64,000 nt of DNA from an uncultured Candidatus Rokubacteria bacterium. Its GTDB lineage: Bacteria > Methylomirabilota > Methylomirabilia > Rokubacteriales > CSP1-6. The stretch is taken from positions 160,001-224,000 of the forward strand of contig CAVWWD010000007.1 in NCBI GenBank assembly GCA_963758635.1, given 5' to 3'. Every line of letters begins with the position of its first letter. The first letter of the stretch is position 1. Both the position numbers and the translations under genes were made by a program. The notes beneath the pieces were generated by a model. It saw only the letters and a list, made by a program, of their open reading frames with translations, was not told where the DNA came from and ran no database searches. Of the stretch, positions 36,008 to 41,733 are shown one piece after another.

Positions 36008-36124
36008 CCCTCTCCCCTCCGGGGAGAGGGCAGGGTGAGGGGCGGTCGTACCACCGCGCCGGGTCGCCCGCCGAGGGTCGATCGTCGAGGTGGCGCCACC
36101 GACCCTCACCCCGGCCCTCTCCCT
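36008..36124. repeat. REP-like paired palindromic element, left part (interrupted by the IS)
   Basis: Arms match the reverse complement of 25812-25929; last hairpin stops at CCCTCTCCCT. Confidence 0.9.
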
Positions 36125-36157
36125 GCTCAGAAAATGACGGGTGAACACGGGCTCCTG

Positions 36158-37355
36158 TTAGGCAGCGGGTTCGAGCATTACGCGATAGCCCTGACGTTGG
36201 AGCAGCTCGACGGCGCGACGGGTGATGCGGTGAGATGGCGACGGTCGTAGTAGTCGGGGCCGGGGTCGCAGGAGCGACGCTAGCGAGGATGGATAGACCG
36301 CTGGGAGCATGGCATGGGCGACGGCGACGACAGCCTTTGTGCCCGATGGCGCTGATGCGGCGGTACGCGCCGCCAGGGCGCATTTGGTGCGGATGGCGGG
36401 CAGGGCCGCTTCGATGAGGGCATGCGCGACAGCGGTTGCCCTTCGAATCTTGCTGAGTGTGCTGACCACGCTCTGCCGATTGCCGGGGCAGAACCGACCA
36501 GCGGCGAGATGCCGGCACTGGGAAAGGGGCGCTGTCCAGCCCGATCCGCGAGGAGGACCTCCGCCGTGCGGCGAGCGATCCCCGGCACCGTGTCCAGCTG
36601 GTGCAGCTGGCGCGCGAAAGGGGCCAGGGCGTGTCGACCTCCGCGCTGACCGCGGCGATCGCCTCGTCCAGGTACTCCAGATGGGCTAACAGTTGCCCGA
36701 CAAGAAAGGCGTGGTGGGGCCGGAACCGCCCCGCGAGCGCTTGGCGCAGGGCAGCCAGCTTCTGCGCAACCGGCCCCGCGCCAGGTCGGCCAGCACCTCG
36801 GGATCGGTCGTGCCCTGCACCAACGCCTCCAGCATGGCGCGGCCGAGACCCCCAGGATGTCGGTGGCCACCGAGGCCAGCTAGATGCCGGCGTCCTGCAA
36901 CAGCTTGTGCAGGCGATTGGCCGCCCGCTGGCGCTCCTGGATCACCACCTTGCGGTGCCGCGTCAGATCGCGCAGCTCTCGAATCGCGGCGGGAGGCACG
37001 AAGCTGCCCCGCAGCAGCCCGTGCTCCAGCAGTTGCGCGATGCAGATGCAATCCAGCCGTCGGTCTACCGGCCGGGGACTTGCTTGATGTGGGCGGGATT
37101 GACCAGCAGGCACGTGCCGATCTCTTCGAGGACGTAGAACACGGGCTTCCAATACACGCCGGTGCTCTCCATCGCCACATCCGTGACGCCGTGCGCCTGC
37201 AGCCAGTCCCGCAACAACAACAACTCGGCCGCCATCGTCCCGAACGTGCGCACATGTTGCTCCCGCTCGCCCCGCGGGCCGGGCACGCGTACGCACGCGG
37301 CCACACTGTGCCGGTGCACGTCCAGCCCTGCGCAACGCTCGATCTGTCGCTCCAT
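36158..37355 (-). pseudogene. IS110 transposase/recombinase, many indels and an internal stop
   Basis: CAGLDVH, VAMESTGVYWKPV, VNPAHIKQVPGR, GLLRGSFVPP, LRDLTR, DTVPGI, FPSA, KAVVAVAH, LQRQGYRV across several frames. Confidence 0.9.
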
Positions 37356-37380
37356 CCCGCGCCTCCCCCCGGTCATAGTC

Positions 37381-37526
37381 GCCGCGGCCGGAGGAGCCTC
37401 CCTTTGCACGACTCTGCTCGGCGTGCTCAGACACGCAACAATGCGGGGTGCCGAAAGCTCCCACGTCAGACTGGAACCAGACTTGCCCCCGTACCATGGA
37501 GAGGGCGACGTTGCCCGGCCCGCGGC
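37381..37526 (-). ncRNA. Candidate IS110 bridge RNA
   Basis: Non-coding end upstream of the transposase; -10-like TACCAT (37539-37534); closing stem GCCGCGGGCCGG/CCGGCCGCGGC; internal segments match target and donor junction flanks. Confidence 0.75.
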
Positions 37527-37574
37527 TGGCGCGATGGTAGCCCTTTTCATGCTGCAGGGTGCGCCTCGGCAGCT

Positions 37575-37587
37575 GGAAGGGAGAGGG
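37575..37587. repeat. Displaced right arm of the interrupted REP-like hairpin
   Basis: GGAAGGGAGAGGG; its GGGAGAGGG pairs with CCCTCTCCC at 36115-36123. Confidence 0.88.
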
Positions 37588-37589
37588 GG

Positions 37590-38781
37590 TGTAGAACAGC
37601 GGGCTGTTCGAGGGGAGGCCGAGGACGGTGCGGCCGACCGCCTCGTAGTTCACGAACTGGAGCTGGTTGTGGCGCGTGACGACCTCGGCGTCGCGCGCGT
37701 AGCGCTCGAGCGGGCTCGACGTGAAGATCGACGTGGTGCCGGCGGTCGCGCACACCATGTGGGTGGCGGCGGCCGCGCTCTGCGCGGCGTGGGTCATGGC
37801 CAGGCGCAGGTCGGCGCGCTGGCGCTCCGTGACGGGCTGCGCGGCGAGCACGGTCTGCCACATGTCCGCGACCACGTCGAAGAGGAGCGCCCGCCCCGAG
37901 CGCAGGATGGCCTCGGCCTCGCCGATCTTCGCCTGCACGATCGCGCGATCGCGCAGCAGCTCCGAGGACGAGCGCGGCACCTTCACCTGCGCCAGCTCGA
38001 CGAACGCGTCGATGGCCGCGCGCGCCACGCCCAGGCCCACGCAGCAGAAGCCGCAGCCGGCGAGGTCGAAGCCGTGCATGCGGTTCATCGGCCCGGTGAT
38101 CCGCGCGCGACGGTCGAGCGCCGAGAACGTCCGCTCCTCGGGCACGAACAGGTCCTCGACCTCGATGTCGTGGCTGCCCGTGCCGCGAAGCCCGCTCACG
38201 TTCCACGTGTCGATGATCCGCGCCTGGGCCTTCGGGTAGAAGTAGGCGATCCGCACCTCCTGCTCGCCGTGCGGGGTGAGCCGCGGCGTGTCGCCGTCGA
38301 ACACCTTGCACGCCCCGTGGAGCGCGGACGAGTGCATGCACCCGCTCGCGAAGAACCAGTGCCCGGTGACCCGGTAGCCGCCGGACACCGCCACCGCGCG
38401 GCCGCGCGGGTTCGCGGACCCGGCGGAGATGCCCACCGGGTCGCTGAAGAAGATCTCGCGCCGCACGTCCGGAGCGAACTGCGCGCTCTGCCGCAGCGTG
38501 TTGATCCCCATGGCGAGGCACCAGCCCGCGGACCCGTCGGCCCGCGCGATCTCCTCGATGACCTGGAGCGTGGTGACGACGTCGGCGCCGAGCCCGCCCT
38601 CGCTCTCGGGCAGGGCCACGCGGAAGAGCCGCGCCCGCGCGATCTCGGCGACGAGGGCGGGGGGAAGCTGGCGCGTCGCCTCGATCTCCTCGGCCGCCTC
38701 GCGGACGCGGGGCGCGAGGGCTCGCGCCACCTCGAGCGGCCGGGCGGAGGCGGGGATACGCGCGCCGATCTCGGTCACCAT
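37590..38781 (-). CDS. Acyl-CoA dehydrogenase-family flavin-dependent hydroxylase (3' end approximate; no stop seen)
   Basis: ARADGSAGWC, GHWFFASGC, TWNVSGLRGTGSHD, LERYARDA; frame continues into the IS. Confidence 0.85.
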
Positions 38782-40739: not shown

Positions 40740-40814
40740 CGCCGCCCCGCTCCACAGCCGCAGGTACCGGTGGCTGCGCGCCCGGGACACCAACCGCACC
40801 CAGGGGAGCTCGCC

Positions 40815-41658
40815 ATGCCGACCATCGACGCCCAGGTGCACGCCTACGAGAGGAACCACCCCGGCCGTCCCTGGGCGGCCGTGCTGCACGGGCCGCCCGA
40901 GGTCACCGGCGACGACATGGTGGCGGCGATGGACGCCGTGGGCGTGGACGGCGCGCTGCTCGTCTCGCCGTTCACCATGTACCGCGTACGACGCGAGCTA
41001 CGCCGTCGAGGTGCACGCCCGGCATCCTGGCCGGTTCGGGCTGATCAAGCCCGTCGATCCGTCCGATCCTGGCGTGGCCGACACCGTCGCGGACTGGGCG
41101 GCGACCCCGGGCGCCGTCGGCATCCGCATCATGATGAACCGCGGCGTGTCCGAGGACCCCGCCGATCCTGGCATCAACCGGGTCCTCGCCGCGGGCGCGC
41201 GGCACGGGCTGCCGGTGAACGTGCTGTGCTGGGGCCGCCTGGAGCAGGCGCGGGAGATGGCGGTGCGCAACCCCGACACCTCCATGGTGATCGACCACCT
41301 CGGCCTCCAGCAGCCGTTCGAGCCGCCGCCGCCCGCCGAGCCCTTCGCGGACCTGCCGGGCGTGCTGAAGCTGGCGGCGTGCCCGAACGTCGCCATCAAG
41401 ATCACCGGCGCGTGCACGCTCTCGCACGAGACCTTCCCCTATCGCGACATCTGGGGCCCGCTGGGGCGCATCTTCGACGCCTTCGGCATCGGGCGCTGCA
41501 TGTGGGGCACGGACTGGACCCGCGCCGTCGGGCTGCTCACGTACCAGCAAGGGGTCGACGCGTTCCGCGTGACCGATCGCCTGAGCGAGAGCGACAAGGC
41601 CACGCTGATGGGCGGAACGCTCGAGCGCCTGTACCGGTGGTCGCCCGGGAAGGCGTGA
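40815..41658 (+). CDS. Amidohydrolase family 2 protein, frameshift near 40985
   Basis: IDAQVHAY, then IDHLGL, PNVAIKITG, MWGTDW in the next frame. Confidence 0.85.
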
Positions 41659-41733
41659 CCCTGGAGCGGATGGGCGCCGGGCGCCGGCTGCGCCGCGCCG
41701 TGGTATAGAAGGGCGCATGGACAGGTGCCTGCG

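Follow-up and report, generated by a model that had tools for sequence, protein, structure and literature searches.

The window analysed here (a 64,000-nucleotide stretch of DNA of an uncultured Candidatus Rokubacteria bacterium) carries an IS110 element (36123-37574, minus strand), and the stretch flagged in an initial annotation upstream of its recombinase gene is, as judged from the comparison of related sequences, the bridge RNA gene of this element. For both target guides and for the donor guide directed to the right end, this comparison places the guides in an order inverted relative to that of IS621. The donor loop also differs from the IS621 type, in which both strands flanking the core are addressed: its second guide reads the right end, while the first copies an internal site (X), with which it very probably pairs. 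Among the sequences compared this departure of the clade from IS621 is statistically firm, while mechanistically it is open. The reading that we favour, with modest confidence, is that of a two-loop bridge RNA encoded at the upstream end, both donor guides of which would recognise a donor folded from a single strand.

The CT core of the element lies inside a hairpin repeat that is found throughout the genome (113 repeats, corresponding to 226 strand hits), nine copies of which have the loop TGGAA. The left half of the host repeat occupies 36103-36122 (plus strand), within which target guide 1 reads the arm at 36114-36122, and the right half (37575-37587, plus strand) comprises the GGAA part of the loop and a stem arm, a flank shared with a second copy of the element on contig C12. 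The core dinucleotide at the right junction (36123-36124, plus strand; AG on the strand of the element) is present as a single CT in empty sites and is duplicated at the left junction (37573-37574, plus strand). The ends of the element were confirmed by empty repeats with one CT and the loop TGGAA (the repeat at C7:342694 is identical to the reconstructed empty site), which indicates insertion at a short core into a target that is otherwise unchanged.

The recombinase gene (36158-37355, minus strand) matches PF01548 in fragments and is broken by frameshifts and in-frame stop codons. Its start codon is placed at 37355, and the 218 bases between this codon and the left end hold the motifs of the initial annotation. 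Compared with the gene of the C12 copy, 32 bases are missing here and 2 are missing in the other direction; moreover, short-read contigs from two studies (runs X2 and X4), which share the insertion site, contain eight additional bases at four places within 37563-37572. Since the small deletions of this copy are many and one-sided, we consider an error of the consensus a likelier source than decay. The recombinase of this copy is broken, probably in part through assembly errors, and the copy, as assembled, is probably inactive. An amidohydrolase-like gene elsewhere in the window (40770-41708) seems to be split across two frames, which may be another assembly frameshift. The second copy (G000 C12:228401-229485) is devoid of the left end and of the first 61 codons, yet both repeat flanks are kept; it breaks off just past a GCTCTCC word resembling the target, which may reflect aberrant recombination or mis-assembly. 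The same genome contains a further IS110-family gene (L214, G000 C7:44492-44962), covering the full PF01548 model without stop codons, that was missed by a search with the DNA of the element.

Relatives of the element were drawn from genome, metagenome and plasmid collections; viral contigs yielded none. The 117 upstream regions obtained formed 74 clusters at 90%, from which we dropped eight whose left end was absent, had been replaced or could not be parsed (L002, L004, L017, L030, L035, L128, L150 and L167), and 24 new non-redundant elements were added, giving a set of 90. Seven loci from unpublished genomes were left out, as were L226 and L235, in which a complete left end was not recognised. 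Guides were excised by their position in the scaffold only. The script chose wrongly at about 9 of the 74 right junctions, and these were kept in the set, which lowers the scores given below, and in the shuffle statistics kin are only partly independent.

The recombinases of intact relatives are 409-414 aa long. Residues D12, D99 and D102 are invariant and E63 and S299 nearly invariant in 38 of them, and the predicted fold of one (L001) matches those of IS621 and ISCro4. Membership of the IS110 family is borne out by these residues, by the fold match to IS621 and by the PF01548 fragments in the window. Several groups of relatives show habits of their own. In one sub-clade (L001, L036-L038 and L090-L111) the insertion follows a conserved GATCGAG or GATTGAG, which resembles the final codons of a host gene that occurs repeatedly. 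Several of these elements begin with TGA or TA and may restore the stop codon of the host. A distant group (L012-L015, L019, L022, L221-L223, L225, L227 and L233) includes several elements inserted at an A-run within other insertion sequences; by eye, this site is the frameshift site of IS3-like elements, and target guide 2 is an A-run. Tandem or nested copies, with a second left end directly after the right core, were observed at L230:1779-2208, at the right end of L232 and in L017. In many targets (L041, L043, L044, L050, L133, L135 and L137) a strong hairpin adjoins the insertion site, a situation described for ISPpu10.

The body of the bridge RNA (37381-37526, minus strand; its true ends are not mapped, and the outer closing stem comes from a single-sequence fold only) comprises a target loop followed by a donor loop, as had been proposed from the single sequence. 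A consensus structure built from 48 of the 90 sequences has 23 pairs, 15 of which are changed on both sides; none of 500 shuffles scored as high, and slid-alignment controls scored far below it. In this alignment the two internal loops carry look-alike distal stems, and the scaffold motif TGTTGC ... GAGCAC, which forms the distal stem-loop of the donor loop (helix 6; 37423-37440, minus strand), recurs in 77 of the 90 elements. Taken singly, the window sequence folds no better than its shuffles (z = +0.51), and Rfam contains no match to the bridge RNA; it is therefore the alignment that supports the fold.

A weak hint of expression comes from two metatranscriptomes, in which contigs of relatives (about 91-95% alike) were found; one of these, 201 bases long, spans 37351-37547, ends and strand not being visible. 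Runs with only a small share of words (X17-X24) were left out. The contig matches listed include no end-to-end joint of the element. A candidate -10 box (TACCAT, 37534-37539, minus strand) was recognised by eye, with similar hexamers in close relatives, and may belong to a putative promoter. Upstream of the element, the frame of an acyl-CoA dehydrogenase gene (37575-38781) has no stop codon before the repeat and enters the left end with the same orientation as the bridge RNA, so read-through from it could supply this RNA.

The target loop contains two guides, directed to opposite strands, that covary with the insertion site. Target guide 1 (GCCCTCTCC, 37498-37506, minus strand) is the complement of the flank beyond the right end and is identical to the plus strand at 36114-36122. 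When scored against its own site it matches at 3.66 of 6 positions, compared with 2.42 for shuffled sites (n=73, best of three registers). It is followed by an A at 37497, where the core guide stands in most relatives; at 37498 a difference is seen in two RNA contigs of relatives, and the register of this guide shifts by one base across the clade. Target guide 2 (GTTCCAG, 37471-37477, minus strand) is a copy of the flank before the left end together with the core, its TTCCAG being the reverse complement of 37573-37578. Here the score is 6.38 of 7 against 4.30 for shuffled sites (n=61), and all 39 decisive swaps between neighbours favour the own site (39:0). The dinucleotide TC that follows (37469-37470, minus strand) occupies the handshake position and is identical to the dinucleotide with which the intact element begins. 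Such identity holds in 75 of 87 elements; this copy is an exception, and intact contigs of the same element begin with TC, as read from the insertions. In IS621, handshake bases have been described, and the pairing formed after strand exchange drives insertion (PMC11208158).

Within the donor loop, donor guide 2 (CCGAGCAG, 37414-37421, minus strand) is a copy of the right end and the core; the right donor arm (TGAGC, 36125-36129, minus strand) is read together with the core by this guide. Its score against its own right end is 4.38 of 5 (shuffled 2.56, n=53). The donor-loop handshake matches the target bases next to the core at 0.88 of 2 positions (shuffled 0.60, n=52), a value to which A runs at the core contribute. 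Controls in which the guides were read in the order of IS621 stayed at chance (2.20 vs 2.35 and 1.20 vs 1.28; n=69), in agreement with the inverted strand convention suggested in the initial annotation, which had also named both target guides and the right-end guide GAGCAG correctly. An inverted order has already been published for the target guides of IS1111 seekRNAs (PMC11187229) and an AG core for ISPpu9 (PMC12288879), and with these precedents neither feature is new as such.

Donor guide 1 (ACCCCGCAT, 37441-37449, minus strand) does not complement the end beside it; what it copies, in the same sense, is site X (ACCCTGCAGC, 37551-37560, minus strand), the complement of which lies on the strand read by donor guide 2. 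X lies some 20 bases into the element, with a conserved hairpin on one side and a sub-terminal inverted repeat on the other; this copying of an internal site was missed in the initial annotation, which called the other three of the four guides correctly. Across the 90 elements, which hold 43 distinct guides, donor guide 1 matches its own X at 5.77 of 8 positions, compared with 4.39 +/- 0.12 after shuffling, and the difference persists when the common ACCC guides are removed (5.75, shuffled 4.24). Disjoint swaps between nearest neighbours gave 29 cases for the match of guide and X, 1 against and 10 ties. Out of sample, nine plasmid elements including ISArsp3 scored 5.78 vs 4.70 (p = 0.00025), even though one of the nine was mis-anchored against the hypothesis (a tenth, L226, has no recognisable left end); the reverse complement was not significant in these plasmid elements. 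Control windows and the complement of the guide, tested against donor guide 1, were at chance. Matched single-base changes in guide and X are visible by eye in distant pairs (L232/L234, L224/L230 and L191/L206).

A left donor guide of the canonical type is at chance, with no clear excess over 8 positions (swaps 9:16). The position of the core guide matches the core in only 1 of 87 elements for donor guide 1, compared with 57 of 87 for target guide 1 (two registers allowed). Positions 9-10 of guide 1 equal the complement of the core in 36 of 87, so that some contact with the core is possible, and the two bases after X are neither conserved nor do they match the core. Guide and X do not match perfectly (mean 5.8 of 8). 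Their mismatches show no bias to the pairs tolerated in RNA:DNA hybrids (A/G 20 and C/T 8 vs G/A 5 and T/C 8); a lean toward such pairs is seen for target guide 2. At the right end the complement of guide 1 is in weak excess (5.68 vs 5.48, p = 0.012). The idea of an RNA switch with one partner common to guide 1 and X was rejected, since the RNA region holds no excess of the guide 1 complement (p = 0.63).

The surroundings of X have a fixed geometry. The hairpin begins 6-8 bases past the core in 62 of 87 elements, and in 65 of 87 X follows directly after it; it has a mean energy of -4.9 kcal/mol, compared with -2.4 and -2.6 in control segments; 68 elements have as many as 38 different outer stems, and the geometry stays the same. 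In the window, the left donor arm and hairpin (37561-37572, minus strand) are damaged by deletions and measure 12 bases, compared with about 19-24 in relatives. X ends 4-5 bases ahead of the left repeat in 80 of 83 scored elements. This left sub-terminal inverted repeat (GAAAAG, 37543-37548, minus strand) lies 24 bases inside the end here and 30-41 bases inside in intact relatives, while its right counterpart (TTTTC core, 36130-36136, minus strand) ends 5 bases from the core. The two repeats covary: 56 of 74 elements have no fewer than 6 of 7 bases complementary, own partners scoring 5.65 against 4.55 after shuffling. In folded junctions they pair with a probability above 0.5 in 46 of 62. Such pairing follows from their nature as inverted repeats and is no proof that folding occurs.

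These features can be joined in one model. As the covariation shows, the target loop reads both strands of the insertion site in an order inverted relative to IS621, so that the strand antisense to the recombinase gene plays the part of the IS621 'top' strand, and donor guide 2 reads the right end and the core on this antisense strand. Donor guide 1 would pair with the same strand at X; both donor guides run in the coding-strand sense, and both should therefore pair with the antisense, i.e. RNA-defined top, strand. In the excised circle the antisense strand would fold back on itself, with the inverted repeats paired on one side and the hairpin capping the other. The resulting bubble would consist of an arm of 6-8 bases, the core and an arm of 5 bases opposite X, so that X, antiparallel to the short left arm, would stand in for the bottom strand of the IS621 donor. 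One folded strand might in this way mimic the duplex donor that the RNA opens in IS621, which would fit a copy-out route with single-strand transfer; that the bases after X do not match the core would be expected if only one strand is transferred. A single-stranded fold-back of the circle junction is, on the sequences available, an evenly balanced proposition. Single-strand excision, with this top strand leaving alone, has been reported for IS621 (10.64898/2026.08.31.748434) and for CazIS110-1 (10.1101/2025.10.25.684509); at one of its junctions, the latter element makes about 20-fold better use of a donor that is double-stranded. In ISPpu9, a mutant of the left-end palindrome still yields minicircles, as detected by end-point PCR (PMC12288879).

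The folded single-stranded donor has to be weighed against other explanations, of which one retains a duplex throughout: donor guide 1 would invade X in supercoiled DNA, with the hairpin extruded as a cruciform, the repeats serving as protein-binding sites and no free single-stranded circle being needed. It explains all of the covariation and agrees with the preference of CazIS110-1 for a duplex donor at one junction (10.1101/2025.10.25.684509) and with the dispensability, by PCR, of the ISPpu9 palindrome for excision (PMC12288879). We nevertheless regard it as unlikely, if plausible, because it requires the unwinding of some 45 bp, because the unconserved bases after X, which do not match the core, fit an absence of second-strand exchange there, and because the asymmetric placing of the repeats turns roughly symmetric only in the fold-back. 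Donor guide 1 might also have been re-purposed for control, so that a complex on the template strand at X, near its own promoter, damps transcription, while donor guide 2 suffices for recombination ('half-match'). A half-match is indeed enough for IS621 excision (10.64898/2026.08.31.748434), the match of guide and X is loose, and in this copy X stands, by count, at the -35 position of the candidate -10 box at 37539-37534. This explanation is improbable, however, given that X is fixed relative to the core, hairpin and repeat rather than to the -10 box (among actinobacterial members this box varies or is not apparent); moreover, transcription in ISPpu9 starts about 84 bases in (PMC8450116), and its box is retained on non-coding mini-elements (PMC12288879).

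It could further be argued that this is an ordinary inverted bridge RNA with a degenerate guide 1, its likeness to X going back to a duplication long ago or to sequence copied from one site to the other, with no pairing involved. The mismatch spectrum, which has no wobble bias, the C-richness of both segments and the precedents for inverted order and AG core (PMC11187229; PMC12288879) would all suit such an origin. Ongoing coupling is needed, on the other hand, to account for the 29:1 outcome of the swaps and for the matched single-base changes in distant phyla, and the control windows were null and the guide complement not enriched in the RNA region (p = 0.63); we give this origin little credence. 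The donor map of the initial annotation, finally, took TCGGCA as the left donor guide and TCTGAGCA with GAGCAG as the right donor guides. The matches behind it are present in this copy: the five motifs and both stem arms lie on the minus strand where they had been placed, TCGGCA is identical to 37566-37571, and TCTGAGCA and GAGCAG both correspond to 36123-36131 read in reverse complement, all as sequence identity only. When covariation of guides and sites was followed in relatives, both target matches and GAGCAG held, the latter covarying with the right end, but TCGGCA and TCTGAGCA did not. The CGG of TCGGCA (37451-37453, minus strand) pairs with 37411-37409 in a covarying stem (helix 5, 98.6% of cells paired), a pair that is changed on both sides in 23 of 48 sequences. 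TCGGCA precedes donor guide 1 in 17 of the 90 elements, and its complement occurs at the left end in this copy only (1/17); similarly, the right end corresponding to TCTGAGCA is found in 14 elements, and TCTGAGCA itself in the RNA of this copy only (1/14), most of it being the conserved GAGCAC scaffold of helix 6. Intact contigs break the TCGGCA match, and as two of their eight extra bases fall within it, the match is a product of the deletions in this copy. As a whole this map is refuted by these results.

Returning to the folded single-stranded donor, we tentatively extend it, at slightly below even confidence, to a whole branch of IS110 elements with proteins of about 410-450 aa (Actinomycetota, Bacillota, Proteobacteria, cyanobacteria and probably ISPpu9), which may have moved to this mode of recognition: both donor guides would address one strand, and the hairpin and the paired repeats would form a pseudo-duplex. 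If true, such enzymes would be programmable recombinases or integrases suited to single-stranded DNA cargo. Whether double- or single-stranded circles are the route of IS110 elements is debated (10.1101/2025.10.25.684509; 10.64898/2026.08.31.748434), and a clade whose guides are wired to one strand would provide evidence for the single-strand route at the level of sequence, with sharp predictions for the cultured and active ISPpu9. For genome editing, a donor designed by the IS621 rule (14 bases around the core) would omit X, and orthologues could consequently be scored as inactive. Published covariation pipelines use 25-base windows centred on the core (10.64898/2026.10.21.760802); since X begins 19-24 bases in, such windows could miss it. 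We found no description of same-strand donor guides in the literature searched, nor in the portions considered of PMC13604230, 10.1101/2025.05.14.653916 and 10.64898/2026.03.19.712850; subscription papers, figures and bioRxiv supplements, which may bear on this point, lay largely outside the search.

Among characterised systems, IS621 and ISCro4 share with the clade the recombinase fold (a RuvC-like DEDD domain and a serine domain) and an RNA located upstream of the gene (Durrant 2024, PMC11208160; Hiraizumi 2024, PMC11208158; Hiraizumi 2026, PMC13626964). Also common to both are a target loop followed by a donor loop, with look-alike scaffolds, the use of a repeat sequence as target, a core of two bases that reads CT on the top strand as defined by the RNA, and handshake bases following the second guide; the two-loop layout parallels the IS621 template (PMC11208160 supplement). 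The clade differs in its protein, which is 22-24% identical and about 90 aa longer, and in the inversion of the guide order relative to the element. Moreover, the LDG of IS621 base-pairs to the bottom strand beside the core, whereas donor guide 1 of the clade copies an internal site without matching the core, and the repeats that flank the donor measure 2-3 bp in IS621, compared with 6-7 bp in the clade, where they are asymmetric and have a hairpin between them.

ISPpu9 of Pseudomonas putida shares the AG core and a repeat-sequence target (PMC12288879, PMC8450116). Its ends have the same geometry: 6 bases, a hairpin, 13 bases and CAAACA on the left, and TGTTTG, 5 bases and AG on the right (PMC12288879 supplement). 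The ISPpu9 protein is more distant, and its family row resembles, by eye, a sister clade sampled here that is about 34% identical to L001. In the parts of the ISPpu9 papers considered, the palindrome is noted, no guides are mapped and the group is described as having no inverted repeats. A motif scan for an ISPpu9 RNA gave two unrelated matches. As its transcription start, about 84 bases in, lies beyond the left-end box (PMC8450116), this box is a DNA element there.

The IS1111 elements with seekRNAs (ISEc11, ISKpn4 and ISPa11; Siddiquee 2024, PMC11187229) encode the RNA downstream of the gene and proteins of 330-350 aa, whereas the RNA of the clade lies upstream and its proteins have 409-414 aa. 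IS1111 repeats are sub-terminal, 7-17 bp long and close to both ends, with a short terminal extension past the left one (7 bp in ISEc11; PMC11187229); here they measure 6-7 bp, and the left one lies 30-41 bases inside. ISEc21, an element with an upstream RNA tested in the same report (PMC11187229), has the opposite guide order. ISArsp3, the name of which comes from a plasmid annotation, is 47% identical to L001 and shares the scaffold, the repeats and site X with the clade, while its target differs; the literature searched contained no functional study of it. Elements of the IS200/IS605 type recognise single-stranded ends via sub-terminal hairpins, using an HUH tyrosine enzyme and DNA-DNA guides, and their likeness to the clade described here is one of logic only.
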